From Bacteroidales bacterium (GTDB taxonomy: Bacteria > Bacteroidota > Bacteroidia > Bacteroidales > Azobacteroidaceae), in assembly GCA_031553755.1 (NCBI GenBank), contig JAVBKZ010000021.1:28251-92250 (forward strand): 64,000 nt of DNA. Direction: 5' to 3'. Position numbers and translations under genes: made by a program. The notes under the pieces are model-generated. The model made no database searches. It had not been told where the DNA came from and saw only the letters and a list, made by a program, of their open reading frames with translations. This document shows, piece after piece, positions 35,267-63,728 of the stretch (its first letter is position 1; each line of letters begins with the position of its first letter).

Positions 35267-35518
35267 TTTAAAAAAGGTTTGATGAGCCAAATTCTGTTAT
35301 TAAAAATTTCCCAATAAGACTTTTCTATTTCCCAAAATTTGATTCCCTTTTATGAATTTTGAAAAAAACGAATCATTTTACACATCTGGCAATATAATTT
35401 ACATGTTGATTCTTTTTTCCTACACAATCTAAATTTATGTCGATTTTTATACTCTTTTCTGAATAATATTCGTTATTGGTGCCTGATTACAATATTCATT
35501 GGGTCGTTTAATCTGTAA

Positions 35519-35537
35519 TTAACCCATTAATTAACCC
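35519..35537 (+). promoter_or_regulatory. Heptamer direct repeat TTAACCC-ATTAA-TTAACCC (candidate activator operator)
   Basis: Two exact TTAACCC heptamers whose starts are 12 nt apart. The repeat ends 22 nt upstream of the -7-like box AAAATTTG (35560-35567). The same 19-mer, with one spacer change, occurs at 58699-58717. Confidence 0.6.
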
Positions 35538-35634
35538 TATTGAAGTTATAATTGAACAGAAAATTTGTATTGAATTAATAATATTCATAAAGGTTGTAAC
35601 CTTAATGGTAATTTTTTATTGTCATTTTTACAGA

Positions 35635-35651
35635 GTTAACATAAGGGTTAA
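35635..35651 (-). promoter_or_regulatory. Inverted, partially conserved third copy of the TTAACCC-N5-TTAAC motif
   Basis: The reverse complement of 35635-35651 reads TTAACCC-TTATG-TTAAC, with the same 12-nt register. It lies 60-76 nt upstream of the ATG at 35711. Confidence 0.4.
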
Positions 35652-40004: not shown

Positions 40005-40015
40005 AAAATACATTA

Positions 40016-40070
40016 TTAGCACACAGAATACCTGAATATTAATAGTAATCTGTGTGCTAATTTTACTTTC
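40016..40070 (+). terminator. Intrinsic terminator
   Basis: TTAGCACACAGA (40016-40027) is the perfect complement of TCTGTGTGCTAA (40049-40060), followed by TTTTACTTTC. Confidence 0.7.
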
Positions 40071-40124
40071 AGTACAACTTTCATCTTTTACAAGAATTAT
40101 GTAAGAACCTAAAATAAAAATAGG

Positions 40125-42146: not shown

Positions 42147-42148
42147 AA

Positions 42149-42172
42149 ATAACGTTTCCTCTGAAATGTTAT
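42149..42172 (+). terminator. Weak hairpin after the calpain-like gene
   Basis: ATAACGTTT-cctctg-AAATGTTAT, 9 bp with one G-U pair. No clear T-tract. Confidence 0.3.
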
Positions 42173-42210
42173 ATACATAAATAAATTTAACAAAGAATGA
42201 TAAAATAATA

Positions 42211-45555: not shown

Positions 45556-45565
45556 GAATAAACGC

Positions 45566-45598
45566 AAAAAAGGTTTATCAACCTTATTTGTTGATTTG
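45566..45598 (+). terminator. Candidate intrinsic terminator after GH31
   Basis: AAGGTT-tatc-AACCTT (45570-45585) followed by ATTTGTTGATTTG. Confidence 0.45.
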
Positions 45599-45633
45599 TA
45601 GTCTCAATGTTTTTTTAATCAAAGATGAATCAA

Positions 45634-45655
45634 CCGGCCTCGGTTAAGAGGCCGG
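45634..45655 (+). other. GC-rich hairpin 20 nt upstream of the TldD-like start codon
   Basis: CCGGCCTC-ggttaa-GAGGCCGG, a perfect 8 bp G/C-rich stem in an AT-rich spacer. No T-tract follows. Confidence 0.5.
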
Positions 45656-45674
45656 TAGTAAATATGTATTTATA

Positions 45675-47369
45675 ATGAAAAAAATAATCTATTTATTGTT
45701 GTTAATCATTTGCTTAACAAATGCTTACGCCCAAGATCCATTATTGGATATTTTGAAGAAGGAAGCAGATAGAAACCTGTCTGTATTAAGTAAAGAAGAA
45801 ACTCCAGCCTATTATATAAGCTATCGAGTATATGATACGGAAAATTATTCTATAAGTGCTAATCTTGGTAACCTGATGAATAGTAATTTTTATAGAGAAA
45901 GACCTTTCTTAGCGACCGTCAGAGTTGGAAGTCATGAGCTTGATAATACACGCGAATTAAGAGGAAATAGCAGGACTTTCAATAATAACTTTTCTTATAA
46001 TCTCTTGATTTTTGATAATGACAGTAAAGTAATACAAACTACGCTTTGGAGGAAAACCGATGAATTATACAAAAATGCCGTAAAAGATTATGCCAAAGTC
46101 AAAGCGAATATGGCTGTTACCGTAGCTTTAGAAGATAAATCTGATGATTTTTCAAAAGAAACTTCTGTGCAATATTATGAAAAACCAATATTGTTTAAAT
46201 CTCTTTCATTTGATGTGAAAGGGTGGGAGGATAAACTGAAAAAATATAGCAATGTTTTTACTTCCAATAAAGAAATATTGTCAGGTAGCGCGAATTTACA
46301 AGCACAACTCTGTCGGCGTTATTTTGTCGATACCGATGGAACAAAAGTAGTAGAAAACACGATCTCGTATCGCTTGTCGCTATCTGCTAATACTGTTGCT
46401 GAAGACGGAATGAATATTCCTCTCTATAAATCATATTTTGCACTCAAACCCGAAGATCTTCCTTCGGAAGAAAAAATATTAGCAGATATAAAGGAATTGG
46501 TAAACATGATCGTTCGTTTGAAAAACGCGCCTGTCGCGGAATCGTTTACTGGTCCTGCTTTGATGACATCGGAAGCGTCCAGTGTGTTTTTTCATGAAAT
46601 TTTCGGACATAGGATTGAGGGCGCTCGCCTGAAAATGGAAACAGATGCACAGACATTCAAAAACAAGATCGGAGAACTGGTTTTACCCGAAGACATCTCT
46701 GTTATTTTCGACCCGAAACTTGAAAATTATAAAGGATTTGATTTGTCGGGAAGTTACAAATACGACGATGAAGGAATTAAAGGCCAACGTGTAACAATTG
46801 TTGAAAATGGAATATTGAAGTCTTTTCTTATGAGTAGAGTTCCGATTACAGGATTCCCAAAATCGAACGGACATGGACGTGGCATGATTTATTTTAATAC
46901 AGTTACCCGGCAATCAAATATGTTTATAGAGTCTTCTAAACCTAAAACTATAAAAGAATTGAGGGGTATGGTTATCGAAGAAGCTAAAAATACGGGTAAA
47001 TCCTATGGATATCTTTTTGATGATGTATCGGGAGGATTTACGACTACCGGAAGATATATGCCAAATTCATTCAACGTAACTCCTTTGGTCGTTTACCGGA
47101 TTTATGTAGATGGCCGTCCTGATGAATTAGTCAGGGGAGTTGACCTTGTAGGAACGCCTCTCGCTATGTTTTCTCAAATTACGGCTTGTGGGAATGACCT
47201 TGGAATTTTTAATGGATATTGTGGAGCTGAGTCAGGTTCGATACCAGTATCTTGTGTTTCACCTTCTATTTTTGTAAAAATGGTAGAAACTCAAAAAAGG
47301 GTTAAATCTCAAAATCAACCACCTATATTGGAAAGGCCTGTTTCATCCATTATTTCATCTTCTAAATAA
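45675..47369 (+). CDS. Signal-peptide-bearing TldD-like metallopeptidase (TldD/PmbA family, HExxxH present)
   Basis: Signal peptide MKKIIYLLLLIICLTNAYAQ. HEIFGHRIEG zinc-binding motif as in TldD. Family-typical GIKGQRVTIVENGILKSFL and C-terminal region. Confidence 0.7.
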   Translation: MKKIIYLLLLIICLTNAYAQDPLLDILKKEADRNLSVLSKEETPAYYISYRVYDTENYSISANLGNLMNSNFYRERPFLATVRVGSHELDNTRELRGNSRTFNNNFSYNLLIFDNDSKVIQTTLWRKTDELYKNAVKDYAKVKANMAVTVALEDKSDDFSKETSVQYYEKPILFKSLSFDVKGWEDKLKKYSNVFTSNKEILSGSANLQAQLCRRYFVDTDGTKVVENTISYRLSLSANTVAEDGMNIPLYKSYFALKPEDLPSEEKILADIKELVNMIVRLKNAPVAESFTGPALMTSEASSVFFHEIFGHRIEGARLKMETDAQTFKNKIGELVLPEDISVIFDPKLENYKGFDLSGSYKYDDEGIKGQRVTIVENGILKSFLMSRVPITGFPKSNGHGRGMIYFNTVTRQSNMFIESSKPKTIKELRGMVIEEAKNTGKSYGYLFDDVSGGFTTTGRYMPNSFNVTPLVVYRIYVDGRPDELVRGVDLVGTPLAMFSQITACGNDLGIFNGYCGAESGSIPVSCVSPSIFVKMVETQKRVKSQNQPPILERPVSSIISSSK

Positions 47370-47378
47370 ACAACAATT

Positions 47379-49034
47379 ATGAATCTACAATATAAAAAAT
47401 TCTTTGTTTTTGGAGTATTTCTGTTTTTGAATATATCCTTCATTTGTTCGCAAAAAGAACAGGCTGTTATTGATCTTATGAAAACCGAAGTGGATCGTAA
47501 TCTTTCAGGATTGAAAATTGAAAATCTTCTTCCTCCTTTTTATATCCGGTATGTGATTTTGGATAACGAATTCTTGGATATGTCAGCTTCCGGAGGATTT
47601 ATATCACAATCCAATACGAGTAAAAGCCGTTATGGATTACCTTTTGTATTGGTGGGCGATTTTTTTCGCAACAATGTCAGTTATGTTTCCAATAGTGTCC
47701 CAATGTTTTTTATAAGTACTGAAGATTCAGGTATCGCGACCGGTATCTGGAATGGCTTGGATAATAAATACAAACAGGCTGCAGAAGATTTTGAGGCTAA
47801 AAAAGCGGTACTTAGCCAAGAAAATCAAACAATGGCACAGCAAAAGGTTGCAGATTATGAGGATACTCCTTGTCCTGATTTATTGTTGAAACCAGCAAAA
47901 ATGAATATGGACCCTATTTATTGGGAAAATTATATACGGAAAGGTTCGGAAGTTTTTAATAAATATCCTGAAATTATTTCTTCTCAAGTTTCAGTTGCCC
48001 ATAGAAATACGATGGCCTATTGCTATGATACAAAAAAAGGTAAATATGCAATTCCAAATTCTTATTACAAAATTACTGTAAATATTTCTATTTTGAATGA
48101 TAATGGACAGGTGTTGAATGACGATTGGCCGATTGAATATTCATATTTTGAATCGGTCCCGGATTTGAAATCATTTATCTCTTTATGTGAACAATATGCC
48201 GATGATATGATGAAGAGACGAAATGCTCCAATGGTAACTGATCCATATATAGGGCCTGTTTTGTTTGAAAATCATGCCGCGATGCAAACTTATGTTATGC
48301 AGTTTTTTTATAACCAGTCGTTGATGGCTCAAAAGAAACAAATTTTTTCACAAGGAAATAGTAATATTCCTTCTCCCGGACAGTCGATGGAAGACATGAT
48401 AGGAAAGCAGATCATATCTCCAAGTTTGAATATTGTTTCATTAACCGGTACTGAGAGTTACAATGGTGTCAAACTGGATGGATATTATCCGATGGATTTG
48501 GAAGGTGTTGTTCCTGACAAAGAACTGTTTTTGGTGAAGAAAGGAGTTCTGAAGACATTATTGAACAGAAGAATCCCTACATTAAAGGTTCCTCACACCA
48601 ATGGTCATGCACGGTTTAATGTTTTTTCAAGGCAAACAATTATTGCTCCCGGAAATATACATGTTTACAGCGATGAAGCAATTCCTCTTAGCGATTTGAA
48701 ACACAAATTGATTGCCGCTGCCAAAGAAGAAAATTTGGAATATGCATATATTGTTCGTAGAATGAGACCTAATTTGGTACTTTCTATTTACAAAATATAT
48801 GTAGAAGATGGACGGGAAGAATTGGTTCGAGGAGCTATGATTCAAGGACTAAACCTTAGATCTTTCAAAAAAATATTGGGGGTTTCGAAAGAAGAATTTT
48901 TCTATAACCATACAGGTCTTGGCCAGATAGCGACTTATATAGTTCCTTACGGTATATTATTTGAAGAAATGGAAGTTTTGAGAGATAATAAAATATCCTT
49001 GAAACCACCTTATGTAGTTCCTCAACCCAATTGA
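47379..49034 (+). CDS. Signal-peptide-bearing PmbA/TldE-like partner protein (no HExxxH seen)
   Basis: Signal-like N-terminus MNLQYKKFFVFGVFLFLNISFICSQ. Overall colinearity with the preceding gene (ETDRNLS-type N-terminus, KKGVLKTLLNRR.., VRGAMIQGL..) but no metal-binding motif. 9 nt gap to the TldD-like gene. Confidence 0.6.
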   Translation: MNLQYKKFFVFGVFLFLNISFICSQKEQAVIDLMKTEVDRNLSGLKIENLLPPFYIRYVILDNEFLDMSASGGFISQSNTSKSRYGLPFVLVGDFFRNNVSYVSNSVPMFFISTEDSGIATGIWNGLDNKYKQAAEDFEAKKAVLSQENQTMAQQKVADYEDTPCPDLLLKPAKMNMDPIYWENYIRKGSEVFNKYPEIISSQVSVAHRNTMAYCYDTKKGKYAIPNSYYKITVNISILNDNGQVLNDDWPIEYSYFESVPDLKSFISLCEQYADDMMKRRNAPMVTDPYIGPVLFENHAAMQTYVMQFFYNQSLMAQKKQIFSQGNSNIPSPGQSMEDMIGKQIISPSLNIVSLTGTESYNGVKLDGYYPMDLEGVVPDKELFLVKKGVLKTLLNRRIPTLKVPHTNGHARFNVFSRQTIIAPGNIHVYSDEAIPLSDLKHKLIAAAKEENLEYAYIVRRMRPNLVLSIYKIYVEDGREELVRGAMIQGLNLRSFKKILGVSKEEFFYNHTGLGQIATYIVPYGILFEEMEVLRDNKISLKPPYVVPQPN

Positions 49035-49063
49035 TATTTTTTGAATTTTTAAAATTATATAAT

Positions 49064-51850
49064 ATGAGATTCCCTAAATTTATAAATAGCAACAGACTAT
49101 TTTGCCTCATTTTTTTTGTGTTTGCAACATCTTTCGTATTTGCTCAAAAACCGGTACCCTATTTGCAAACACCTACACCAAATTCTATTTGGGTTAATTG
49201 GCGTACAACTATTTCTTTAGAGAGTAAAGTATTGTATGGAGAATCAGCATCTTCTCTCGATGAAATAGCAACCGGTGATACGCAAACATTGACAGATCCC
49301 GGCGATAATTACACCAAAAATTATTATTACCACGGAGTTCAACTTACAAATTTGAAACCCGGTACACGGTATTTTTATAAAGTAGTGAGCGAATCTGAAA
49401 CATCAGATGTTTATAGTTTTAAAACATCTCCGGCCGATGGCTCAACCAGTATTTATCGCTTTATTATTTTGGGAGATCACCAACTATATGATGATCGTTA
49501 CGAACGCCTGATGAAAGCGGCTAAAGCTAAAGCTGAAGAAAAATACGGAACACCTATTGAAGATCATATAAATCTGATTACCAATGTGGGAGATCAGGTA
49601 GATAAAGGAACTTTGAAGCAATATGAAGAAGTACACTTCAAACGTTCGGAATCACTTTCTCCCAACCTTCCGATCCTAACCATTGTTGGAAATCACGAAA
49701 CTTATGGAACTCTCGGATTAAATGCTTACGCGGCACATTATTTTTATGATAATATCGAATATAAAGGAATCAAAAGCGGTAGTGAGTTTTACTATGCAAC
49801 GCAACAAGGCAGGGCCTTATTTTTGATGTTAAGTAGTGAAGGTATTCACACGAATAATACTCAACTTAGTTGGGCAAAGCAAGTTATTGAAACCGCGAAA
49901 AATGATCCTAATATTGATTGGATTTTTAGTTATAATCACCGTCCATTGCAAGCCGAACAATATATTGGAGATATTTCAACTTGGGTTGTGAATCAAATCA
50001 TGCCACTGTTGAATACTACCGAAAAATCGGTCATGAATGTTTCCGGACATCACCATCTCTATCACAGAGGGCAATTAAGGGATTATCCGACTTATCATAT
50101 TATTACGGGCGGTGCAGCATGGGATCAACGTTGGGGACAATCTACTGAAAAAGATTTTGACGATGTGCAAAAAACGATTGATTATTGGCCTTTTCAGATT
50201 GTAGAATTGAATCCTGCCGAAAAATCAATGTATGTGGAAACCTATGTAATAGGTAATCAAGTGGAGACATTCAGTCAAGCGATTTTAGTTGATTCTTTTT
50301 CAAGAAAATTCGGACAAAAACGACCGAATAAACCATCTGTTCTTCCATTAACAAATGAAACCATTGAATTGCCTTATACTTTCCAAAGTAGTCCTTATTC
50401 CACCGAAAGCGGATATGAATATAACAGCGTTCAGTTTCAAGTTTCTTCATCTTCTGATTTTCAGAAACTGGAGTTTGACTTGATTCGTGATTATGAAAAT
50501 ATTTATGGCGCTCATCCTTCAGGATGTGTTCTGACGGATATAAATAAAGGTGTTGATATTTTCAAACAAGAAATTGCTAAAAATAAATTATACAACGGAA
50601 ATCATTATATCCGTGTGCGTCATCGCGATAAAAATGCGGAATGGTCGGAATGGTCAGATCCCGTATCATTTACTACCATCAATGGATTATCCGGAGAATG
50701 TTCGTTGATTTCTGCTAAAAGGATTTATGCAAGTGGTGAAAACTTAAATTTCTCTTTTTCCAATGCAAGAAATGAATCCAATCAATGGGTAGGAATTTAT
50801 AAAGAAACTCAAACACCCGGTTCAAGCTCTCCTTCCATTATTTGGAAGTATATGGGAGGCGAATCAGGGACTGTTATTTTCGATAAATCGACATCAAAAT
50901 TCGACCAAGTAACATCAGGTGTTTATTATGCCGCGTTATTCAAAGATGGAGGATATGAAGTCATCGCGAAATCGGGATTGTTTTATGTAGGAATAGTTCC
51001 TTACTTGGAAAGCGATAAACTTAAATATAATGTTGGAGAAGCTATTACTGTCGGAATTCATAATGCTCCGAAATTGACAAATGATTGGATTGGTATTTAT
51101 AAAATGGGACAAACGCCCGGGCCAAGTCCTCAGCCCGCAGCTTCTGCTTGGGGATATGTTAAAAACGCGACAGATAACGCGTTGAAAATTCAATCGGCAA
51201 GCTTGAGCAAGGGATATTATTTCATTACTTATATGATGCAAGATAAGTATTTTGAGCCGGGAGACCGTATTTTTATCCAAGTTGGAGAAGAAATATCAAC
51301 TCTATCATTAGATAAAACTACTTACTACAAAGATGAACCTATTGTTTTTCATTATGCCGATGGACCGGGTACTCCGAAAGATTATATCGGAATTTATAAA
51401 GAAGGAGATGTCTATGGTGTCGATGAACTAACTACTTACCTATATGTGTATGGAGAAGTTACCGGTGATTTGAGTTGGGATAAAAAAATATCAGGAGAAT
51501 TACTTCCTGAAGGAAATTATTACGCGTACTTCTTTACAAACGACAGTTATGACGCTGTTTCCAACAAAGTTACATTTACTGTTAGTCATAACGTAAATTC
51601 CGGATTAAAACAATTTTCTTCGGGAGAAGGTGTGAAAATATTTCCTAATCCGGCAAAATCACAGATAAGTGTAGAACTTGAAAATAAATTACAGGCAGAT
51701 ATCACAGCCTTTCTTTATGATATTTCTGGAAATTTAATAAAGAGCTATCTTTTTGATAAACAGAGTAATGTAATTAATGTTTCAGGTTTCCCTTCAGGAA
51801 TTTATTCTTTGAAAATAGAAGATAGGGTAGCAAAAATTATAATTCAATAA
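49064..51850 (+). CDS. T9SS-targeted purple-acid-phosphatase-like metallophosphoesterase with three C-terminal W(I/V)GIYK repeat modules
   Basis: The ORF opens with a TTG at 49031; the ATG at 49064 gives the signal peptide MRFPKFINSNRLFCLIFFVFATSFVFAQ. FN3-like PAP N-domain (WVNWRT..YYHGVQLTNLKPGTRYFYKV). Metallophosphoesterase motifs ILGDHQ, VGDQVDKG, VGNHE, SGHHHLYHR. Three roughly 100-aa modules marked WVGIYKETQTPG, WIGIYKMGQTPG and YIGIYKEGDVYG. T9SS tail (VKIFPNPAKSQ..GIYSLKI..KIIIQ). Confidence 0.75.
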   Translation: MRFPKFINSNRLFCLIFFVFATSFVFAQKPVPYLQTPTPNSIWVNWRTTISLESKVLYGESASSLDEIATGDTQTLTDPGDNYTKNYYYHGVQLTNLKPGTRYFYKVVSESETSDVYSFKTSPADGSTSIYRFIILGDHQLYDDRYERLMKAAKAKAEEKYGTPIEDHINLITNVGDQVDKGTLKQYEEVHFKRSESLSPNLPILTIVGNHETYGTLGLNAYAAHYFYDNIEYKGIKSGSEFYYATQQGRALFLMLSSEGIHTNNTQLSWAKQVIETAKNDPNIDWIFSYNHRPLQAEQYIGDISTWVVNQIMPLLNTTEKSVMNVSGHHHLYHRGQLRDYPTYHIITGGAAWDQRWGQSTEKDFDDVQKTIDYWPFQIVELNPAEKSMYVETYVIGNQVETFSQAILVDSFSRKFGQKRPNKPSVLPLTNETIELPYTFQSSPYSTESGYEYNSVQFQVSSSSDFQKLEFDLIRDYENIYGAHPSGCVLTDINKGVDIFKQEIAKNKLYNGNHYIRVRHRDKNAEWSEWSDPVSFTTINGLSGECSLISAKRIYASGENLNFSFSNARNESNQWVGIYKETQTPGSSSPSIIWKYMGGESGTVIFDKSTSKFDQVTSGVYYAALFKDGGYEVIAKSGLFYVGIVPYLESDKLKYNVGEAITVGIHNAPKLTNDWIGIYKMGQTPGPSPQPAASAWGYVKNATDNALKIQSASLSKGYYFITYMMQDKYFEPGDRIFIQVGEEISTLSLDKTTYYKDEPIVFHYADGPGTPKDYIGIYKEGDVYGVDELTTYLYVYGEVTGDLSWDKKISGELLPEGNYYAYFFTNDSYDAVSNKVTFTVSHNVNSGLKQFSSGEGVKIFPNPAKSQISVELENKLQADITAFLYDISGNLIKSYLFDKQSNVINVSGFPSGIYSLKIEDRVAKIIIQ

Positions 51851-53536: not shown

Positions 53537-56050
53537 ATGTTTAAAAGATTTTTTTTAGTAGTGCCGAGGATACTATTCTTTTTTATAGGTATTTCAATTT
53601 TTTCCGGATGTAAAGAAAAATTTGATTATATACCGAATACTTTGCGTGCGCCGGCTTACCCGCTTGTGACTATTGATACGTATACGAATGGTTGGTTGTT
53701 TGGAGATACATTGTATAAAGAACAAATTTGTCATAATACGGGAAGAAAATTTCCATTGTTGGGATTAATACGTGTTGATGGTAAGAATTTTCGATTTATG
53801 GGCAATGTTGAAAATGCTATTTATGCCCCTTTGGCTGATGTTTCAGAACAAGGAGAGTGGGAAGGGAAATATACATTTGTTGAACCCGATAAAAATTGGA
53901 TTTCGGCTAATTATGATGATGATAAATGGGCGACAGGAAAAGGTGCGTTTGGTTACTTTGATATTAATAAAGTAACGCCTATAGTACGAACTTCTTGGAA
54001 AGGGCAACACATTTGGGTAAGAAGAGAACTTACCTTAGAAGAAGATTTGGCCGGAAAAGAAGTTTATTTGCAATTTTCGAATGATGATGCCGCAGAAATA
54101 TATATAAACGGCGTTGAAGTAGTTAACACTGGTAATGTTGTGAAAATGAATGAAAGAATCAAACTTTCAGATGAAGTTGTCGCGACTCTTCGCAAAGGTA
54201 AAAATATCATGGCCGCTCATTGTATGAATAGGATGAGAAATGCCATAATAGATTTTGGATTAAGCGTTAGTCAACCGGTATTTCCTTCATTAGAACAAAC
54301 AGCGACTCAAAAATCAGTTGAAGTACAACCTACACAGACAATTTATACATTTACTTGTGATTCTGTCAACTTAAAATTAACATTTACAGCTCCTTTATTG
54401 ATGAATGATTTGGAATTGTTATCTCGTCCGGTAAATTACATTTCATACGAAGTTATTTCTAAAGACGCTAAGAAACATGATGTTGAATTATATTTTGAAG
54501 CAGGGCCTGAATGGTCATTAAGCTCAGATTATCAGGAATGTAAGAGTGAATCATTTGAAAAAGATAATCTTGTTTTTCTTAAAACCGGTTCTGTAGCGCA
54601 AGAAGTACTGAATAAAAGAACCATTCCTTATATAGATTGGGGATATTTTTACCTTGTTTCAAAAAAGACAGATACTTATTCCGGTGTTGGCGATTATTGT
54701 GAAATGAGAACTGATTTTTGTTCCAAAGGTTTTGTTAAAAAATCACAAAAAAAATCACCAAACAAAAAAAATCACATAGCAGTCAGTCATTCTCTTGGAA
54801 AAGTGAAAGATTCAAAAAGCGGTTTTGTCATGCTTGGATATGACGATGTATATTCCGTACAATATTTCGGACAAAAATTGCGTCCCTATTGGAATCGTTC
54901 CGCGGATAAGAACATATTACAAATGTTTGAACTTGCGGAAAAAGAATACAAAAAAATACAAAAACAATGTAACCAATTTGATGTGGAAATGTTGAATTAT
55001 GCTTCAAAATGCGGCGGAAAAGAATATGCCGAACTTTGCGCGTTAGCATACAGGCAATCAGTTTCGGCACATAAATTGCTTGAAGCTCCTAATGGGGATT
55101 TATTATTTTTATCTCACACACTAGAAAAAACAGCGACTGTAGACGTTACATATCCGTCTGCGCCTTTGTTTTTATTATATAATGTAGAACTATTGAAAGC
55201 AATGTTGAACCCGATATTTCATTATGTAGAAAATGAAAATTGGAACTACCCTTTCGCTCCTCATGATATAGGAGAATATCCTTATGCTGATGGTCAGACT
55301 TCTGATTATTATCGTCTTCCGGTTGAAGAGTCGGGTAATATGCTCATCCTTACTGCTGCGATTGCGTCTATGGAAGGTAATGCCGATTATGCGAAAAAAC
55401 ATTGGAACACTTTGTCCAAGTGGGCGGATTATCTTTTTAATGAAGGGTTTGATCCGGCCAAACAACTATCTACGGATGTTTTTGCCGGATATACCACTCA
55501 CGATACTAATTTATCAATTAAAGCAATACTTGGCATAGCTTCGTATGCCCGTTTAGCAGACATGTTGGGAAAAAATGAAATTGCGAAAAAATATTCGATG
55601 GAAGCGCGTTCATTGGCTTTGAAATGGACTAAAATGGCTGATAATGGAGATTATTACCGGTTTGCGTTCGATCAACCGGATACGTGGAGTCAAAAATACA
55701 ACTTGGTTTGGGATAAAATAATGAAAATAGATGTATTTCCTCATGAAGTACGTGAAAAAGAAGTGGCCCATTATCTGAAGAAACAAAATGAATATGGATT
55801 ACCTTTAGATAGTCGACATTTGTATACAAAGGCGGACTGGATCGTTTGGAGCGCGACATTATCTCCTAATATTGAAACTTTTCAAGAATTTATAATTCTT
55901 CTTCATAAATATGTAGATGAAACACCGGTCAGAAGGCCCATGGCGGATTGGTATTGGACAAATACCTTTGAAAATCCCGATTTTCATGCGCGTTCTGTAG
56001 TCGGCGCTTTTTTTATAAAAATGATGGAAGATAAATTAATTAATAAATAA
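53537..56050 (+). CDS. DUF4965/DUF5127/DUF1793 (glutaminase-A-like) lipoprotein with inserted galactose-binding-like jelly roll
   Basis: Lipobox ISIFSGCKE. LRAPAYPLVTIDTYTNGW N-terminus. Insert with W..IWVRRELTL..YLQFSNDDAAEIYINGVEV. C-terminal helical region (YPSAPLFLLYN, VEESGNMLILTAAIA, YNLVWDK, YGLPLDSRHLYTKADWIVW) as in glutaminase-A-like proteins. Confidence 0.7.
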   Translation: MFKRFFLVVPRILFFFIGISIFSGCKEKFDYIPNTLRAPAYPLVTIDTYTNGWLFGDTLYKEQICHNTGRKFPLLGLIRVDGKNFRFMGNVENAIYAPLADVSEQGEWEGKYTFVEPDKNWISANYDDDKWATGKGAFGYFDINKVTPIVRTSWKGQHIWVRRELTLEEDLAGKEVYLQFSNDDAAEIYINGVEVVNTGNVVKMNERIKLSDEVVATLRKGKNIMAAHCMNRMRNAIIDFGLSVSQPVFPSLEQTATQKSVEVQPTQTIYTFTCDSVNLKLTFTAPLLMNDLELLSRPVNYISYEVISKDAKKHDVELYFEAGPEWSLSSDYQECKSESFEKDNLVFLKTGSVAQEVLNKRTIPYIDWGYFYLVSKKTDTYSGVGDYCEMRTDFCSKGFVKKSQKKSPNKKNHIAVSHSLGKVKDSKSGFVMLGYDDVYSVQYFGQKLRPYWNRSADKNILQMFELAEKEYKKIQKQCNQFDVEMLNYASKCGGKEYAELCALAYRQSVSAHKLLEAPNGDLLFLSHTLEKTATVDVTYPSAPLFLLYNVELLKAMLNPIFHYVENENWNYPFAPHDIGEYPYADGQTSDYYRLPVEESGNMLILTAAIASMEGNADYAKKHWNTLSKWADYLFNEGFDPAKQLSTDVFAGYTTHDTNLSIKAILGIASYARLADMLGKNEIAKKYSMEARSLALKWTKMADNGDYYRFAFDQPDTWSQKYNLVWDKIMKIDVFPHEVREKEVAHYLKKQNEYGLPLDSRHLYTKADWIVWSATLSPNIETFQEFIILLHKYVDETPVRRPMADWYWTNTFENPDFHARSVVGAFFIKMMEDKLINK

Positions 56051-56076: not shown

Positions 56077-56090
56077 TACTGTTGAAAGTT

Positions 56091-58616
56091 ATGTTTGGAA
56101 AAAAATACATAATACTTATAATTATCCTGTTATATTCTTTTCATTTGTTTTCGAAGAAACAAATTAATGGACTTTTGTTCTCTTCAAGCGAGGAAAGAAT
56201 AAATGATCGTACCTCTTTGATTTTATTTGACGATAGTCCTTTGAAATTGAAAGATGCTTTTCGAATTGATTTCGATTTAGCGATATGGGATATTAAACAG
56301 TTTGGCTATATACTACGGATAATAAACGAAAATAAGCAAGAGATTAATTTTTCGTTTGTGAATTTCTATGGTGAAGATAAAATTTATTTAGATTTTCATA
56401 GCCCGATAACACACGAATCTGTTCAAATACCATTTTCGGTACAAGACATTGAGGAAAAACGTTGGTTGCCAATCAGCATTATTTTCGATCTTAAAAAAGA
56501 TCGGGCTGAGGTTGTCTCAAAAGACTCTTCTTATATATGTAAATCGATCGGTTTGCAAAATCCCTCCCGCATAAAATTGGCTTTTGGATTATACGGACTC
56601 AATTTGGATGTACCACAAATGGCAATCCGGGATATTCGGATTGGAGAAGTAGGTGGAAGAATACACAACGTTCCCTTGGATGGATTAAGGAACGAAATTG
56701 TACATGATGACAATGGCAAGGTAAGAGGGATTTCTAAAAATCCTAAGTGGTTGGTATATAAACATTATTATTGGGAAGAGAAAGCTGTATTTGAATCCGA
56801 CCCTACTACCGGAATAGCTTATGATTCGAGCCGGAATAATGTTATTGTAGTAGATAAAGATGCTATCTTCAGCTATTCGATGAGATATGATAATGAAAGA
56901 AAAGTTCTCATAAAAGATTTTCCTTTCGCGTTGAATTCGGGTGAAGCTATTTATGATGATAAAACGAACTTGTTGTATGTCTATAATTTAGAACAAAAAA
57001 CGCCGGATAGCCCAACTATGGCTATTATCAATATGGTAAATAATAAAATAGAATATAAACATGCCTCCATGAGTCACCGTCTATATCATCACAATGCTTT
57101 TATGGGCACTGAAAAAAAAGGTTTTTATATTTTCGGAGGTTATGGCAATCATTCATATTCGAATAAAATATTAAAATATAACATTCAAACAGATAGTTGG
57201 GAACAAGTGGATTTTACCGGAGATGAAATATATTCCCGATACTTTTCAGCCTCAGGTCAAGGGAAAGAGCCATCGCAAATATTGATTATGGGTGGAATAG
57301 GAAACGAATCCGGTAAACAAGAACATGGAGGACGGCATTTGTCTGATTTGTTTTCATTAGATATCGAAACAAAACAGGTAAAAAAGATATGGGATATAAA
57401 AGATGTCCATTCGGGTTTTGTTCCTTGTAGTAATTTGATACTCAGTGAAGACAGTACACATTTTTTTACTCTATGTTATCCACAGCATGAAGTAAATTCA
57501 ACATTGCAATTATATAAATTCCGACTTTCCGATGGAAGCTATGAAGTTGTAAGTGATACGATTCATATCAATGCGGAACAAATGGAAACATCAGTTTATT
57601 TGTTCTATAATAAACAATTGAAAGAATTTTATACTGTTATCAGAGAAAATAATGTGGATAGAAAAGCAAAAATATTGATATATTCACTCTTGTCTCCTCC
57701 CGTAAATTTTTCAGAATTAAAATCAGAAGAAAATCAGTCAATATTTTATTGGGTTCTATTTTCATCTTTATTTCTTATAATCGCTATATCAGCCATCGTG
57801 TTATTGTTACGGAAAAAAAGACGTAGAACGGAATTATTGGCCTTGTTAGAAAAAAATTATCAGGAGGAAAAAAAGTCTCAATCAAAAAAAGAAGTAGATA
57901 AGAAAAATGCGATTTTTATTTTTGGAAATTTTGCTGTGTATGATAAAAATAACAGAGAAATAAGTTATCGGTTTAGCTCGAAATTAAAATCGCTTTTCGC
58001 GTTGATACTTTTTTACAGTATTGAAGATGATGGAGTTTCAACGGATATGATGTCTTTTTCATTGTGGCCGGACAAAGACCTTAACGGCGCAAAAAATACA
58101 AGAGGAGTCACAATTAACAGACTGAGAAATATTCTTGCTGATATTTCAGGGATAACGCTGTTTCATCAAAACTCTAAATGGTATTTCTCATTTGATTCTG
58201 ATTTCTATTGTGATTATTTAGAATACCGGAAAAGTATCAAAAATATTAAAAAAGAAATGATCGATGAAGATGAGTGTATGTCTAATTTGTCGGATATAAT
58301 AAACAGAGGACCCTTTTTCCAAAATATACAGGAAGATTGGATTGATAGTTACAAACATGAATATGAGAGTGAAATAGAAAATATACTTTGGAATTATATA
58401 GTCAAATTAAATGAAAGCAAAAAATATGTGAAAGTAATTGAGTATTCTGAATTATATTTCATCATAGATTCCTTGAATGAAGATGTTCTTAGACTATGTA
58501 TACATGCCATGCAAAAAATAGGCAAAAAAGAGCAAGCTATTACACTGTATAATAAATTTGTTGCGAATTATAAAAAATTAATGGGAGAAGACCCGATTTT
58601 ATCTCAACCAATGTAA
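56091..58616 (+). CDS. Membrane-spanning one-component regulator: periplasmic lectin-like + Kelch-type sensor, one TM helix, cytoplasmic OmpR/SARP-type winged helix + BTAD-like domain
   Basis: The ORF opens with a TTG at 56082; the ATG at 56091 is preferred. N-terminal anchor KKYIILIIILLYSFHLF. ConA/LamG-like segment (INGLLFSS..FRIDFDLAIW..LAFGLYG). Kelch-like repeats (FYIFGGYGNHSYSNKILKYNIQTDSWEQV, ILIMGGIGNESG..LSDLFSLDIETKQVKKIW). TM helix IFYWVLFSSLFLIIAISAIVLLL followed by RKKRRR. wHTH-like IFIFGNFAVYDKNNREI..LKSLFALILFYS..VSTDMMSFSLWPD..TRGVTINRLRNIL. Helical BTAD-like end (..LRLCIHAMQKIGKKEQAITLYNKFVANYKKLMGEDP). Confidence 0.65.
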   Translation: MFGKKYIILIIILLYSFHLFSKKQINGLLFSSSEERINDRTSLILFDDSPLKLKDAFRIDFDLAIWDIKQFGYILRIINENKQEINFSFVNFYGEDKIYLDFHSPITHESVQIPFSVQDIEEKRWLPISIIFDLKKDRAEVVSKDSSYICKSIGLQNPSRIKLAFGLYGLNLDVPQMAIRDIRIGEVGGRIHNVPLDGLRNEIVHDDNGKVRGISKNPKWLVYKHYYWEEKAVFESDPTTGIAYDSSRNNVIVVDKDAIFSYSMRYDNERKVLIKDFPFALNSGEAIYDDKTNLLYVYNLEQKTPDSPTMAIINMVNNKIEYKHASMSHRLYHHNAFMGTEKKGFYIFGGYGNHSYSNKILKYNIQTDSWEQVDFTGDEIYSRYFSASGQGKEPSQILIMGGIGNESGKQEHGGRHLSDLFSLDIETKQVKKIWDIKDVHSGFVPCSNLILSEDSTHFFTLCYPQHEVNSTLQLYKFRLSDGSYEVVSDTIHINAEQMETSVYLFYNKQLKEFYTVIRENNVDRKAKILIYSLLSPPVNFSELKSEENQSIFYWVLFSSLFLIIAISAIVLLLRKKRRRTELLALLEKNYQEEKKSQSKKEVDKKNAIFIFGNFAVYDKNNREISYRFSSKLKSLFALILFYSIEDDGVSTDMMSFSLWPDKDLNGAKNTRGVTINRLRNILADISGITLFHQNSKWYFSFDSDFYCDYLEYRKSIKNIKKEMIDEDECMSNLSDIINRGPFFQNIQEDWIDSYKHEYESEIENILWNYIVKLNESKKYVKVIEYSELYFIIDSLNEDVLRLCIHAMQKIGKKEQAITLYNKFVANYKKLMGEDPILSQPM

Positions 58617-58698
58617 AAAAATATTTATATATCAACACGCTTGCTATTTTTGTGAAAAATATCATAAAATAGCCGGATTAATGTTTTTTAAGAGTTTA

Positions 58699-58717
58699 TT
58701 AACCCATTATTTAACCC
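58699..58717 (+). promoter_or_regulatory. Heptamer direct repeat TTAACCC-ATTAT-TTAACCC (second copy of candidate operator)
   Basis: Identical to 35519-35537 except for one spacer base. Preceded in both cases by A (ATTAACCC). It ends 21 nt upstream of the -7 box at 58739. Confidence 0.6.
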
Positions 58718-58738
58718 AAATAGTAATACTGTATATTA

Positions 58739-58746
58739 TATATTTG
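58739..58746 (+). promoter_or_regulatory. -7 box TATATTTG of the second DUF4965 gene; no -33 TTTG at the expected position
   Basis: Exact TAnnTTTG match 53 nt upstream of the ATG at 58799. The -33 position is flanked or occupied by the heptamer repeat. Confidence 0.5.
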
Positions 58747-58798
58747 GTAATAATTTAAATAAATTTTTATATTATTGACTTTAGAGCTAAATTTACAC

Positions 58799-61279
58799 AT
58801 GAAAAAAAATCTTCCAATTTTATTATTAAGCATCATTTTGCTTATCTCATGCGGAAACAACAAATGTGAATTTGTTAAAAATGATTTGCGAGCTCCGGCT
58901 TATCCGCTTATTACGATTGACCCTTACACAAGTGGATGGTCATTTACGGATAATTTGTATGATGGATCAGTGAAACACTGGACAGGGAAGGACTTTCCTT
59001 TAATCGGACAAATAAAGGTAGATGGAGAAACTTATCGTTTCATGGGAATTGAAGAATTGGAATTGAATCCGCTCGTGCCGACTTCGGAACAAGGTGACTG
59101 GAGTGGAAAATATACAGAATCTAAACCGGCTAACGACTGGATCAAAAATAATTTTGATGATTCGAAATGGAAAAGCGCGAAAGGCGCTTTTGGTACTACG
59201 CACAATGAACCTACATCGAAAACACATTGGGAATCAGAACATATATGGATAAGACGTGCAGTTACTATTGACCAGGATTTGAAAGGAAAAAACATATATC
59301 TTGAATATTCAAACGATGATGGCGCTGAATTTTATATCAATGGAATTTTGGCTTTTGAAACCGGAAATACTTGTAACAAAAATAAAATGGCGAAACTTTC
59401 TCCCGAAGTTGTGAACTCGCTTGTTGTGGGAGAAAACCTTATCACGGCGCATTGTCATAATCCGGTAGCTAACGGATTAATTGATTTTGGATTATTGGTC
59501 GAAAAAGAAAAACAAAACGCCATGAAACAAACCGCGGTTCAGAAATCAGTAGATGTTCAGGCGATGCAAACCCGTTACAAATTCACTTGTGGAACTGTAG
59601 ATTTGAATTTGACTTTCACTGCTCCGCTGTTTATGAACAATTTAGATTTAATGACTCGTCCGGTAAACTATATTACTTATGAAGTAATTTCGAATGATAA
59701 ACAAGCGCATGAAGTAGAAATTTATTTTGAAGCGTCTCCTCAATGGGCGTTAGATCAACCATATCAACAAGCAGTCAGTGAGCGTTTTGAAGAAGATGGT
59801 TTGGTATTTATGAAAACAGGAAGTGTCGACCAAAATGTCTTGGTTAAATTTGGCGATGATGTCCGTATAGATTGGGGATATTTTTATATGGCTTCCGAAA
59901 AAGAAAATACAAAAACCGACATTGGCAATGGCGAATCTTTAAGAAATGCTTTCATAAGTGGAAATTATAACAACAATACCAAAGGAGAAAATGAAAATGC
60001 GAAATTAGCATTGGTAAAAAAACTCGGAAAAACGAAACAATCTTCCGGAAAAATAATGATTGGTTATGACGATATTTATTCCATTCAATACTTCGGAGAA
60101 AATTTACGTCCTTATTGGAACCGCAATAACAACGAAACGATTCTTTCTCAATTCAAGAAAGCAAATAAGGAATATGAAAAATTGATGAAAGAATGTTGTG
60201 AGTTCGACAATGATTTAATGAAAAAAGCCACAGCGTCCGGAGGAAAGAAATATGCCGAACTTTGTGTTTTAGCATACCGTCAGGCAATTTCGGCTCACAA
60301 ATTAGTGCAAGCTCCTAATGGCGATTTATTATTCTTATCGAAAGAAAATAATAGCAATGGTTCTATCGGAACAGTAGATATCACATATCCATCTGCTCCT
60401 TTATTCCTGTGTTACAATATTGAGTTAGCTAAAGGATTGATGAATCATATTTTTTATTACAGTGAAAGTGGAAAATGGGCCAAGCCTTTTCCTTCTCATG
60501 ATGTAGGTACTTACCCTCGTGCAAACGGACAAACTTATGGAGGAGATATGCCAGTGGAAGAATCCGGAAATATGTTGATATTGGCCGGCGTTATTGCCAA
60601 GTTGGAAGGAAATGCCGATTACGCGAAAAAACATTGGAATGTATTGTCGGTTTGGGCTGATTATTTGGCGGAAAAAGGATTAGATCCGGAAAATCAACTT
60701 TGTACGGATGACTTTGCCGGACACTTCGCGCACAATACCAACCTTTCTATTAAAGCCATTTTAGGAGTAGCTTCTTATGGTCATCTGGCAGATATGCTCG
60801 GAGATAAATCAGTTGCTGAGAAATATATTTCAAAAGCTCGTGAAATGGCGCAGGAATGGGCTAAAATGTCGGATGATGGAGATCATTACAGACTGACTTT
60901 TGATAAGCCCGGAACATGGAGCCAAAAATATAATCTTGTTTGGGATAAATTGCTTAAATACGACATTTTCCCGAAAGAAATAGCTGAAAAAGAAATAAAA
61001 TATTATCTCACGAAACAAAATCAATATGGTTTGCCGCTCGACAATAGAGAAAGCTATACAAAAGCCGACTGGATTATATGGACTGCTACCATGGCGAATG
61101 ACAATGCTACTTTTGAGAAATTTATAGATCCGCTTTATTTATTTATGAATGAAACAAAAGATCGCATTCCTATGTCTGATTGGGTATTCACGGATAAACC
61201 CTATCATCGCGGTTTTCGTGCGCGTTCGGTTGTAGGCGGATACTACATAAAAATGCTTGAAGAAAAATTAATGAAATAA
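58799..61279 (+). CDS. DUF4965/DUF5127/DUF1793 (glutaminase-A-like) lipoprotein, paralog of 53537-56050
   Basis: The ORF opens at 58775; the ATG at 58799 gives MKKNLPILLLSIILLISCGNN (lipobox). Colinear with 53537-56050 over the whole length (LRAPAYPLITIDPYTSGW, IWIRRAVTI..YLEYSNDDGAEFYINGI, YPSAPLFLCYN, VEESGNMLILAGVIA, YNLVWDK, YGLPLDNRESYTKADWIIW). Confidence 0.7.
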   Translation: MKKNLPILLLSIILLISCGNNKCEFVKNDLRAPAYPLITIDPYTSGWSFTDNLYDGSVKHWTGKDFPLIGQIKVDGETYRFMGIEELELNPLVPTSEQGDWSGKYTESKPANDWIKNNFDDSKWKSAKGAFGTTHNEPTSKTHWESEHIWIRRAVTIDQDLKGKNIYLEYSNDDGAEFYINGILAFETGNTCNKNKMAKLSPEVVNSLVVGENLITAHCHNPVANGLIDFGLLVEKEKQNAMKQTAVQKSVDVQAMQTRYKFTCGTVDLNLTFTAPLFMNNLDLMTRPVNYITYEVISNDKQAHEVEIYFEASPQWALDQPYQQAVSERFEEDGLVFMKTGSVDQNVLVKFGDDVRIDWGYFYMASEKENTKTDIGNGESLRNAFISGNYNNNTKGENENAKLALVKKLGKTKQSSGKIMIGYDDIYSIQYFGENLRPYWNRNNNETILSQFKKANKEYEKLMKECCEFDNDLMKKATASGGKKYAELCVLAYRQAISAHKLVQAPNGDLLFLSKENNSNGSIGTVDITYPSAPLFLCYNIELAKGLMNHIFYYSESGKWAKPFPSHDVGTYPRANGQTYGGDMPVEESGNMLILAGVIAKLEGNADYAKKHWNVLSVWADYLAEKGLDPENQLCTDDFAGHFAHNTNLSIKAILGVASYGHLADMLGDKSVAEKYISKAREMAQEWAKMSDDGDHYRLTFDKPGTWSQKYNLVWDKLLKYDIFPKEIAEKEIKYYLTKQNQYGLPLDNRESYTKADWIIWTATMANDNATFEKFIDPLYLFMNETKDRIPMSDWVFTDKPYHRGFRARSVVGGYYIKMLEEKLMK

Positions 61280-61415: not shown

Positions 61416-63728
61416 ATGAAAAAGAAAAAGTTTAATTCGATCATCTTAATTTTAACTGTATTTTTTGCTCTGAATACAAAAGCGAATAATCCGGTTAATT
61501 ATGTGAATCCATTGATGGGAACCTTGTCGAAGCATTCGTTTTCAAATGGAAACACTTATCCGGTAATAGCTTTACCTTGGGGAATGAATTTTTGGGTACC
61601 TCAAACCGGTGATATGGGAGATGGATGGTCGTATACTTATACTTCGGATAAGATAAAAGGATTCAAGCAAACTCACCAGCCAAGTCCGTGGATAAATGAT
61701 TACGGACAATTTTCCATTATGCCGGTAACTGGGAAAGCGGTTTTTGACCAAAATGCGAGAGCCAGTTGGTTTTCGCACAAAGCTGAAATTGCTAAACCTC
61801 ATTACTATAAGGTATATTTGGCAGATCATGATGTCGTAACCGAATTAACTCCTACAGAACGCGCTGTTATGTTTCGTTTTACTTTTCCGGAAAATGAAAA
61901 TTCATATATTGTTATAGATGCGTTTGACAAAGGCTCATATATGAAAATATTTCCTGAAGAAAATAAAATAATAGGTTACACAACGAAAAACAATGGAGGA
62001 GTTCCTGATAATTTCAAGAACTATTTTGTAATCAAGTTTGATAAACCATTTAGTTATATCGCTTCGGTAAGTGACGGTAAGATAAGCAAAGACCTCACAG
62101 AAAGTAATTCGAATCACGCGGGCGCTATTATAGGTTTTTCTACAAAAAAAGGAGAAAAAGTACATGCTAAAATCGCGTCTTCTTTCATTAGTTTTGAACA
62201 AGCTGAAATAAACCTGAAAGAATTAGGAAAAGACAGTTTTGAACAAGTTGTCGAAAAAGGAAAAAAAAGATGGAATGAGGTATTGGGAAAAATTCAGGTA
62301 GAAGACGATAATATAGACAATTTGCGTACTTTCTATTCTTGTCTTTATCGTTCGGTTTTGTTTCCGCGTGCGTTCTATGAATATGACGCGACAGGAAAAA
62401 TAGTCCATTATAGTCCATATAACGGAGAAGTATTACCCGGTTATATGTTTACCGATACTGGATTTTGGGATACGTTCCGTTGTCTTTTTCCTTTCCTCAA
62501 TTTACTATATCCTTCAATGAACGAAAAAATGCAGGAAGGATTAGTCAATGTATATAAAGAAAGCGGATTCCTTCCGGAGTGGGCAAGCCCGGGCCATAGG
62601 GGTTGTATGGTTGGAAATAATTCCGCTTCAATTGTAGCTGACGCTTATTTAAAAGGATTGAAAAATTATGATATAGAAACTCTTTGGAAAGCTGTTAATC
62701 ATGGAGCGAATGCTGTTCATCCGAAAATCAGTTCGACAGGAAGATACGGATACGAATATTACAATAAATTAGGTTATGTTCCTTATGATGCCGGAATCAA
62801 TGAAAATGCCGCGCGTACATTGGAATACGCTTATGATGATTGGTGTATTTATCAATTGGGACAAGCTTTGGGAAAGCCTAAAAAGGAAATAGACATTTAT
62901 GCCAAACGAGCCATGAATTATAAAAATTTATATGATTCCGAATACAAATTAATGCGTGGGAAAAATCAGGATGGAACATTTCAATCTCCATTCAATCCAT
63001 TGAAATGGGGAGATGCCTTTACCGAAGGAAACAGTTGGCATTACACATGGTCGGTTTTTCACGACCCTCAGGGATTGATTAATCTGATGGGAGGAAAAAA
63101 GGAATTTAACCAAATGATGGATTCTGTATTCAATGTTCCGCCATTGTTTGATGAAAGTTATTATGGAAGTGTAATACACGAAATCCGAGAAATGCAGGTT
63201 GTAAATATGGGAAATTATGCGCATGGCAATCAACCCATCCAACACATGATTTACTTGTATAACTATTCGGGTGAACCTTGGAAAGCTCAGTATTGGATAC
63301 GCGAGGTGTTGGATAAGTTGTATTTGGCAACTCCCGATGGATATTGCGGAGATGAAGACAACGGACAAACTTCGGCCTGGTATGTTTTCTCTGCTTTAGG
63401 ATTTTATCCTGTATGCCCCGGAGCTAATCAATACATTTTAGGAACCCCTTTATTTAAGAAAACGACATTGAATTTGGAGAATGGGAACCAAGTTACGATT
63501 GAAGCCCCAAATAATGATAAAAATAGAAGATATATTCAGTCGATGAATTTCAATAATACTTCGTATAATAAAAATTACCTGAAACACGAAGATTTGAAGC
63601 AGGGAGCAAAAATAAAGTTTATCATGTCCGAAACGCCGAATATGCGGCGAGGCATCAATGAAGAAGATTTTCCGTATTCGTTTACGAATGAATTGTTAAA
63701 GGAAAAGAAAAGTAATAAAACGAAATAA
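61416..63728 (+). CDS. GH92 alpha-mannosidase
   Basis: Signal peptide. GH92 motifs VNPLMGT..GNTYPVIALPWGMNFW, GNQPIQHMIYLYNYSGEPWKAQ, YCGDEDNGQTSAWYVFSALGFYPVCPG. Confidence 0.9.
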   Translation: MKKKKFNSIILILTVFFALNTKANNPVNYVNPLMGTLSKHSFSNGNTYPVIALPWGMNFWVPQTGDMGDGWSYTYTSDKIKGFKQTHQPSPWINDYGQFSIMPVTGKAVFDQNARASWFSHKAEIAKPHYYKVYLADHDVVTELTPTERAVMFRFTFPENENSYIVIDAFDKGSYMKIFPEENKIIGYTTKNNGGVPDNFKNYFVIKFDKPFSYIASVSDGKISKDLTESNSNHAGAIIGFSTKKGEKVHAKIASSFISFEQAEINLKELGKDSFEQVVEKGKKRWNEVLGKIQVEDDNIDNLRTFYSCLYRSVLFPRAFYEYDATGKIVHYSPYNGEVLPGYMFTDTGFWDTFRCLFPFLNLLYPSMNEKMQEGLVNVYKESGFLPEWASPGHRGCMVGNNSASIVADAYLKGLKNYDIETLWKAVNHGANAVHPKISSTGRYGYEYYNKLGYVPYDAGINENAARTLEYAYDDWCIYQLGQALGKPKKEIDIYAKRAMNYKNLYDSEYKLMRGKNQDGTFQSPFNPLKWGDAFTEGNSWHYTWSVFHDPQGLINLMGGKKEFNQMMDSVFNVPPLFDESYYGSVIHEIREMQVVNMGNYAHGNQPIQHMIYLYNYSGEPWKAQYWIREVLDKLYLATPDGYCGDEDNGQTSAWYVFSALGFYPVCPGANQYILGTPLFKKTTLNLENGNQVTIEAPNNDKNRRYIQSMNFNNTSYNKNYLKHEDLKQGAKIKFIMSETPNMRRGINEEDFPYSFTNELLKEKKSNKTK

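Follow-up and report, generated by a model that had tools for sequence, protein, structure and literature searches.

The SARP transcription factors of Actinomycetota (AfsR, ActII-ORF4, DnrI and, in Mycobacterium, EmbR) are the closest described counterparts of the system analysed here, with which they share the combination of a winged helix and a BTAD domain and the use of tandem heptamer-type repeats placed about one helical turn apart. The SARPs characterised so far act as activators and occupy repeats of this type across the -35 region; in their targets, direct repeats are 11 or 22 bp apart, the 3' repeat lying 8 bp from the -10 element (PMC10936776). At the afsS promoter, two AfsR protomers are placed next to each other on a pair of 11-bp repeats that extend from -40 to -19 over a poor -35 element, and AfsR contacts sigma region 4, the beta flap, beta' and the alpha-CTD (PMC10936776).

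The regulator described below also resembles, in part, two other groups of winged-helix proteins. ToxR, CadC and TcpP are single-pass proteins with a periplasmic sensor and an N-terminal OmpR-type winged helix, without a BTAD, which recognise direct repeats close to the -35 region without leaving the membrane. Our regulator is likewise a predicted single-pass membrane protein that joins a periplasmic sensor to an OmpR-type winged helix, but its topology is reversed, the DNA-binding domain being C-terminal, its sensor domains are different ones and it has a BTAD. With PhoB and OmpR at pho-box promoters, direct repeats carry tandem winged-helix protomers, which take the place of a missing -35 element and make contact with sigma region 4. 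A similar arrangement would stand in place of the -35 element in our system, but here there is neither a receiver domain nor phosphorylation, a BTAD is present and the signal would enter via the same polypeptide.

To our knowledge, the regulation of polysaccharide utilisation loci (PULs) is understood for a few regulator types only, namely SusR, hybrid two-component systems, ECF pairs and GntR. PMC7641319 presents SusR, hybrid two-component systems and ECF pairs as PUL regulator types and mentions, citing Terrapon et al. 2015, a predicted class of PUL regulators called 'SARP-OmpR'. As in the three former systems, as PMC7641319 describes them, an inner-membrane oligosaccharide sensor would be encoded here beside the SusC/SusD and glycoside hydrolase genes that it controls; unlike in them, the output domain has a predicted SARP fold. 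The 'SARP-OmpR' class has in common with our regulator a SARP/OmpR-type DNA-binding domain encoded in or beside PULs, and it probably consists of the same proteins. In the searchable literature we found no operator, promoter architecture, domain analysis, structure or experiment for this class, nor any description of a Kelch-SARP regulator or of its motif, the matches to TTAACCC being 16S primers.

We analysed a promoter region, hereafter site 2, in a window of 64,000 nucleotides (the whole stretch of DNA under study). It is surrounded by the following genes:

53537-56050, plus strand: DUF4964/DUF5127/GtaA gene, immediately 5' of the regulator gene
56082-58616, plus strand: regulator gene, coding for a predicted signal peptide, LamG-like domain, Kelch propeller, transmembrane (TM) helix and cytoplasmic SARP domain (winged helix-turn-helix plus BTAD)
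58799-61279, plus strand: first target gene, coding for a lipoprotein with DUF4964/DUF5127/GtaA_6_Hairpin domains (family formerly called DUF4965)
61416-63728, plus strand: GH92 alpha-mannosidase-family gene, after a 136-nt gap behind the first target

Judging from sequence comparison, positions 58678-58746 most probably (we estimate about 0.8) constitute a complete SARP-type operator-promoter, in which an activator site replaces the -33 element of a glycan-utilisation promoter. Its elements are:

58678-58682, plus strand: R0, distal box TTAAT within GGATTAATG, starting 21 nt 5' of R1 (about -73 to -69)
58699-58705, plus strand: R1, perfect heptamer TTAACCC (about -52 to -46), a conserved column block among 49 aligned sites
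58711-58717, plus strand: R2, perfect heptamer TTAACCC, 12 bp after R1 (about -40 to -34)
58723-58729, plus strand: R3, degenerate heptamer GTAATAC, 12 bp after R2 and 9 nt ahead of the -7 box (about -28 to -22)
58739-58746, plus strand: -7 box TATATTTG, in full agreement with the TAnnTTTG of Bacteroidota sigma-A promoters, implying a start near 58751

The part from 58698 to 58746 lies 82 nt past the stop of ORF 56082-58616 and 53 nt ahead of ATG 58799. The initial annotation had seen here the 20-mer ATTAACCCATTATTTAACCC (58698-58717), separated by 21 nt (58718-58738) from a perfect -7 box (58739-58746) that lacks a -33 element, and we confirmed this description in all its parts: there is no TTG or TTTG at 17-21 nt 5' of the box, and 58712-58724, which reads TAACCCAAATAGT, is devoid of TTG. 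The place otherwise expected for the -33 element is occupied by R2, together with the spacer between R2 and R3. Both heptamers recognised in that annotation are real, but it overlooked R0 (58678-58682) and R3 (58723-58729), which bring the number of boxes to four. A T-tract (58684-58689) directly follows the TTAAT of R0. The -7 consensus TAnnTTTG belongs to Bacteroidota sigma-A, not to ECF factors, and the mapping of flavobacterial transcription starts places it at -12 to -5 (PMC9723704); because of this placement, the start is predicted near 58751, and the promoter coordinates of R0 to R3 are counted from there. As is to be expected in Bacteroidota, scanning 58500-58900 with the sigma-70 consensus gave no useful result. 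Terminator prediction found none separating the regulator gene from site 2, such that read-through could contribute to the expression of 58799-61279.

The copy at 58698-58717 is identical in 19 of its 20 positions to a second one at 35518-35537. With up to three mismatches allowed, these two are the only occurrences of the 20-mer in the window, for which 0.09 were expected, and none of 100 shuffles reached two. Similarly, the double heptamer with a 5-nt spacer and at most one mismatch is found three times in the window (0.04 expected), the third copy being the inverted one at 35633-35651; a scan with a 7-nt spacer gave no match, the true spacer being of 5 nt. That the two copies are a chance match or the functionless relic of a local duplication would be in line with the frequency of the lone heptamer TTAACCC, which is not enriched in the window (9 observed, 10.9 expected), and with the abundance of TAnnTTTG-like strings in AT-rich DNA. 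Nevertheless, the shuffles, and the fact that the unit is kept across Bacteroidota classes whereas its spacers and flanks have diverged, make this explanation extremely improbable, and conservation across the phylum effectively refutes it.

To score complete units, we built a 72-column matrix that runs from R0 through the -7 box and was trained on 35 foreign sites only. Site 2, anchored at 58711, obtained 39.5 bits (training range 32.9-80.4; window mean -76.5, sd 16). The other promoter, site 1, obtained 22.4 bits with its perfect heptamers taken as R2 and R3, but -3.7 bits in the register initially proposed, and the next best position of the window after both sites -6.8 bits. The window thus appears by this score to contain exactly two such promoters, offset by one repeat from each other. 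The earlier claim that they share motif, spacing and register was therefore correct as regards the copied motif but wrong as regards the register. In the matrix layout, site 1 is composed as follows:

35486-35554, plus strand: site 1, whole unit, in the shifted register
35486-35492, plus strand: R0, ATTACAA
35507-35513, plus strand: R1, TTTAATC
35519-35525, plus strand: R2, TTAACCC
35531-35537, plus strand: R3, TTAACCC, 9 nt from the box
35547-35554, plus strand: -7 box TATAATTG
35633-35651, minus strand: TTAACCCTTATGTTAACTC, a double heptamer in inverted orientation, situated 3' of the site 1 promoter and ahead of ATG 35711

The inverted double heptamer lies about 80 nt 3' of the site 1 box and 60 nt ahead of ATG 35711. 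Reading of the minus strand revealed no -7 box at the right distance from it; it might act as a downstream operator or as a site for looping.

In a scan covering one genome per species, 301 relatives were detected, and 80 loci (from Paludibacter, Mucilaginibacter, Puia, Dysgonomonas, Sphingobacterium, Alistipes, Ohtaekwangia and others; individual loci are designated by L numbers) were taken for analysis. With at most one mismatch and a period of 11-12, double heptamers occurred 54 times in the 92 kb situated within 600 bp of the ends of the regulator gene (0.586 per kb) versus five times in the other 945 kb of these loci (0.0053 per kb), a 110-fold enrichment beside the regulator gene in 80 genomes encoding homologues. 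The sites adopt two arrangements, either 3' of the regulator gene on the same strand or 5' of it on the opposite strand, where they serve a divergent gene. Anchored on the second heptamer, 49 sites yielded the consensus [T/G]TAACCC-N4/5-TTAACCC-N5-TTAAyAC-N9-TAnnTTTG. R2 is the most invariant block of this alignment (columns conserved in 48-49 of the 49 sites), R3 follows it at 12 bp with the consensus TTAAyAC and a TAA core in 45-48 sites, and extension of the alignment upstream brought out R0 in the genome loci as G-TTAA(T/C) followed by a T-tract, 20-21 nt 5' of R1. A -7-like box stands 20-21 nt after R2 in 33 of the 49 sites (in Mucilaginibacter it reads TATCATTG or TATACTTG), and only one of these 33 has a TTG at -33 spacing.

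Phylogenetic footprinting, which the initial annotation had suggested as a check, was favourable. Among the closest orthologues (65% protein identity in L001/L201, 63% in L202 and 60% in L002), the window layout is kept, with R3 as GTAATAT or GTAATAC, then 9 nt and a perfect TAnnTTTG, and although spacers and flanks have diverged, L001, L002 and L202 retain both heptamers at the same spacing and at 21 nt from the box. This conservation extends further, to about 50 loci (from Paludibacter, Mucilaginibacter, Puia, Dysgonomonas, Sphingobacterium, Alistipes and others), always beside the regulator gene.

The geometry of these units recalls that of SARP targets without being identical to it. R2 and R3, at about -40 to -22, are where the AfsR repeats sit, replacing a good -35 element, and 9 nt separate R3 from the box (8 in L005), compared with the 8 bp of the SARP rule. 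The other distances are near the rule of 11 or 22 bp without coinciding with it: R2 follows R1 at 12 bp in 37 of 49 sites and at 11 bp in the remaining 12, and R0 and R1 are 20-21 bp, about two helical turns, apart. SARP sites have two or three boxes, whereas there are four here. Furthermore, actinomycete SARPs belong to antibiotic clusters, whereas the present units occur in Bacteroidota, at promoters of the -7/-33 type and with glycan-utilisation genes.

Around 25 of the 80 loci had no site detected within 6 kb of the regulator gene (among them L025-L028, L033, L035, L037, L039, L044, L045, L053-L055, L064, L068, L071, L074 and L076, with homologues 30-33% identical). These loci may use another motif or have remote targets only; a de novo search for exact 8-mer direct repeats beside the regulator gene, in loci without the motif, gave nothing convincing. 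The matrix scan, for its part, recovered further sites in L003, L004, L005, L016, L049 and L065.

The association also held in the reverse direction. A gene-blind metagenome search with the pattern TTAACCC-N5-TTAACCC-N5-KTAAYA returned 120 matches, 64 with a -7-like box 20-22 nt after R2 and 56 without. Of the 64 boxed matches, 43 are preceded on the same strand by a regulator homologue whose end lies 67-916 bp away, versus none of the 56 unboxed ones (Fisher p ~1e-16), and all 43 regulator-adjacent sites thus carry the box. R0, which lay outside the search pattern, accompanies all 43 regulator-adjacent sites and 20 of 21 boxed sites with no visible regulator, as opposed to 0 of 55 unboxed matches. 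The 56 unboxed matches were set aside as unrelated; most of them consist of tandem repeats with a 12-bp unit, (TTAACCCATAAC)n and (TTAACCCCATCT)n for instance, and stem from marine and other samples (L086, L100, L118, L181, L125, L135, L137 and others), and none of the tandem-repeat matches has a -7 box, an R0 box or a regulator.

A paralogous regulator clade of about 40% identity (L008-L013, L017 and L019) is accompanied by a related motif, GTAACCC-N5-GTAACCC-N5-ATAATCA, at the same distance to the box and with R0 as AATTAC (for example, L008 8717-8770). Both variants coexist in one MAG, represented by L001 (TTAACCC) and L013 (GTAACCC), which implies that the motif variant follows the regulator and not the host. 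This argues, at the level of sequence, that the regulator reads the heptamer, and suggests a single-base specificity switch between paralogous regulons, TTAACCC versus GTAACCC. As for the protein side of such a switch, no simple residue change in the recognition helix was found to track the T/G variant: NTRG versus NIRG was considered as the determinant and rejected, as Mucilaginibacter proteins with NIKG also use TTAACCC.

These comparisons bear on whether another transcription factor or an alternative sigma factor might read the four-box unit, the Kelch-SARP gene being simply clustered with it. Binding by the Kelch-SARP protein is a deduction, and in 14 boxed metagenome sites, 700 bp or more of the sequence ahead contain no regulator gene. 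Yet the open reading frames behind regulator-less boxed sites code for SusC-like (7 of 9) or GH76 (2 of 9) proteins, the same classes as elsewhere, as would be the case for remote members of the regulon; remote promoters of the same regulon thus seem to exist, as in the window. In addition, no other gene is constant, since the neighbours vary across loci while the regulator stays, the T or G at the first position follows the regulator paralogue within one MAG, and TAnnTTTG is of sigma-A and not ECF type (PMC9723704). We accordingly hold a different reader to be quite unlikely, and retain the Kelch-SARP protein as the candidate that binds R0 to R3.

The regulator gene encodes a product of 844 residues from a mechanically assigned TTG start at 56082; the ATG at 56091 (MFGKKYIIL...), which gives a typical signal peptide, is the likelier start. 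In the database copy of this protein (P0001), the start is called 21 residues shorter. The signal-like N-terminus is followed by about 210 residues without a Pfam match, then by the Kelch propeller, and a single strong hydrophobic helix (residues 552-578) precedes the stretch RKKRRR, from which the C-terminal ~240 residues are predicted to be cytoplasmic according to the positive-inside rule. Pfam and NCBIfam scans returned Kelch-type domains only, and no histidine kinase, receiver, AraC, SusR-type HTH or sigma-70 r2/r4 domain, and a sequence search of the PDB likewise gave Kelch matches. Sequence searches were too weak to settle the nature of the C-terminal domain: its BTAD match falls below the Pfam cut-off (E 0.007; 17.2 bits versus 22.1), and its profile retrieved only TPR proteins from the PDB. 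By contrast, an AlphaFold2 model of the cytoplasmic domain, built with 22 homologues (pLDDT 92.8), matched in Foldseek against the PDB, at E <1e-3, only the SARP domain of AfsR (8hvr and 8k60, both transcription initiation complexes) and EmbR (2fez, 2ff4), with a best value of 6.8e-7 for 8hvr_I, full-length alignments of about 240 columns and TM scores of 0.58-0.65. Since the predicted fold matches AfsR and EmbR alone, the model identifies the C-terminal domain as a SARP domain, an OmpR-type winged helix directly followed by an all-helical BTAD. No other ORF of the window has a SARP domain, and the JGI annotation of homologues reads 'DNA-binding SARP family transcriptional activator'.

The model of the periplasmic N-terminal domain (pLDDT 87.8) shows a LamG/LNS/pentraxin lectin-type fold, and its structural matches include a putative carbohydrate-binding protein of Bacteroides ovatus. 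With LamG and Kelch domains outside, a TM helix and a SARP fold inside, the regulator is, according to these models, a membrane-tethered one-component protein with a LamG and Kelch sensor and a SARP output. Known SARPs, by comparison, are soluble and bear the SARP domain at the N-terminus, whereas here it is C-terminal and tethered to the membrane behind LamG and Kelch domains.

The genes placed under these promoters are those of glycan utilisation. Among 42 scanned ORFs 3' of sites, 21 are SusC-like, six GH76 and six GtaA-like, and across the loci the genes behind the sites comprise SusC/SusD, GH76, GtaA-like and cadherin-like ones, so that SusC/SusD pairs and glycoside hydrolases, by which a PUL regulon is recognised, are found among the presumably controlled genes. 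At site 2 the predicted targets are a GtaA-like and a GH92 gene instead of SusC/SusD, and the DUF4964/DUF5127/GtaA family is located directly 3' of sites in five other loci. As the downstream genes vary, the regulator is the common denominator of the sites. The GH92 gene is probably co-transcribed with 58799-61279, because both are on the same strand and separated by 136 nt. The combination of GH76 and GH92 is a signature of alpha-mannan loci, and a fungal-mannan-type substrate seems likely from gene content.

On the other side of the regulator gene, the GtaA-like gene immediately precedes it at a distance of about 35 nt, both in the window and in each of the four close loci read (L201-L204), and the pair is probably one operon; the genes 3' of the regulator differ between these genomes. 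The regulator is also the last gene of a co-directional string with short gaps (35711-58616) behind site 1, which makes positive autoregulation through site 1 plausible. Comparative evidence strongly favours what the initial annotation had proposed, one regulon with two promoters in the window, and conservation, association with the regulator gene and the SARP fold likewise favour its view of an operator at an activator-dependent promoter.

From what is shown, namely a conserved sequence that is associated with the regulator gene and the modelled fold of the regulator, we infer binding, activation rather than repression, the nature of the ligand and the transcription start as follows. The periplasmic LamG-like and Kelch domains would probably sense a glycan breakdown product, and ligand binding would lead to oligomerisation of the tethered SARP domains on R0-R3, where they would bind R0, R1, R2 and R3 as side-by-side protomers. 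The R2 and R3 protomers, at about -40 to -22, would replace the missing -33 element, and the bound regulator would recruit or position the sigma-A polymerase on the -7 box for initiation near 58751, the transcript covering the DUF4964/DUF5127/GtaA gene and the GH92 gene. The 35486-35554 promoter, behind which a co-directional string of about 23 kb includes the regulator gene itself, is probably under its control too.

The adjacent regulator might instead be a repressor or a dual-function switch whose occupancy of -52 to -22 blocks the polymerase until the ligand releases it. The boxes do overlap the polymerase-binding region, the -7 box is perfect, so that basal activity without an activator is conceivable, and the inverted double heptamer 3' of the site 1 promoter has a placement typical of repression. 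However, characterised SARPs activate from exactly this position (PMC10936776), the -33 element is consistently missing, a mark of activator dependence, and the phasing of R3 to the box, fixed in 33 of 49 sites, fits polymerase contacts and not simple occlusion. Repression is therefore unlikely in our opinion. The interpretation of site 2 as a SARP activator site has its own counter-evidence in the roughly 25 of 80 loci that lack a site, the 12-bp period, the degenerate R3 and the sub-threshold BTAD match.

Taken together, the data are compatible with a broader scheme, which as a whole we judge slightly more credible than its negation: a phylum-wide set of ligand-gated, membrane-tethered SARP activators would control Bacteroidota glycan-utilisation loci, probably for fungal-type alpha-mannan; a fixed operator, R0-N14-R1-N5-R2-N5-R3-N9-TAnnTTTG, would stand in for the -33 element; and paralogues in one genome would be insulated from each other by a single base, TTAACCC versus GTAACCC. 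If this is true, the 12-bp period and the distal R0 would imply a tetramer-like higher-order assembly at the membrane, unlike the AfsR dimer, and the 'sigma adaptation' mechanism of SARPs would be extended to the unusual sigma-A of Bacteroidota.

The cis-element itself is genuine and strongly conserved. Activation by SARPs is known; what is new is its proposed membrane-tethered form in Bacteroidota, where four boxes and a 12-bp period characterise a promoter of the -7/-33 type. SARP-mode activation would thereby extend beyond the antibiotic clusters of actinomycetes. The 'SARP-OmpR' class, so far a database label, gains a cis-element defined at the level of bases, a predicted start, a domain model and a structural analogue in AfsR. 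Scanning with the motif could predict regulons in hundreds of Bacteroidota genomes, and the units described here suggest inducible promoter parts for Bacteroidota genetic tools.

Some additional features of these loci deserve mention. Variant promoters with one perfect heptamer (R2) occur in L001 (9403-9450), L003 (3152-3210, minus strand) and L204 (about 1120-1180, minus strand); they have GTAACCT or TTAATCT as R3, a perfect -7 box and a conserved GATTACAGCTTTTT ahead, and those of L003 and L204 face away from the GtaA-like/regulator pair, towards a GH43 gene in L204. In the window, the genes between the two promoters, from 37794 to 51850, are rich in secreted enzymes, without a SusC/SusD pair: several encode T9SS-sorted proteins (a cadherin-like protein, a GH31 with CBM6/35 and a purple acid phosphatase), and others two TldD/PmbA-like proteins, a GH32 and a protease of calpain-like type that bears an F5/8 type C domain. 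Finally, a tRNA-Ser(GCT) gene (35133-35220) is situated within the 720-bp gap that directly precedes the cluster's first promoter, and the gene cluster may have been inserted beside it.
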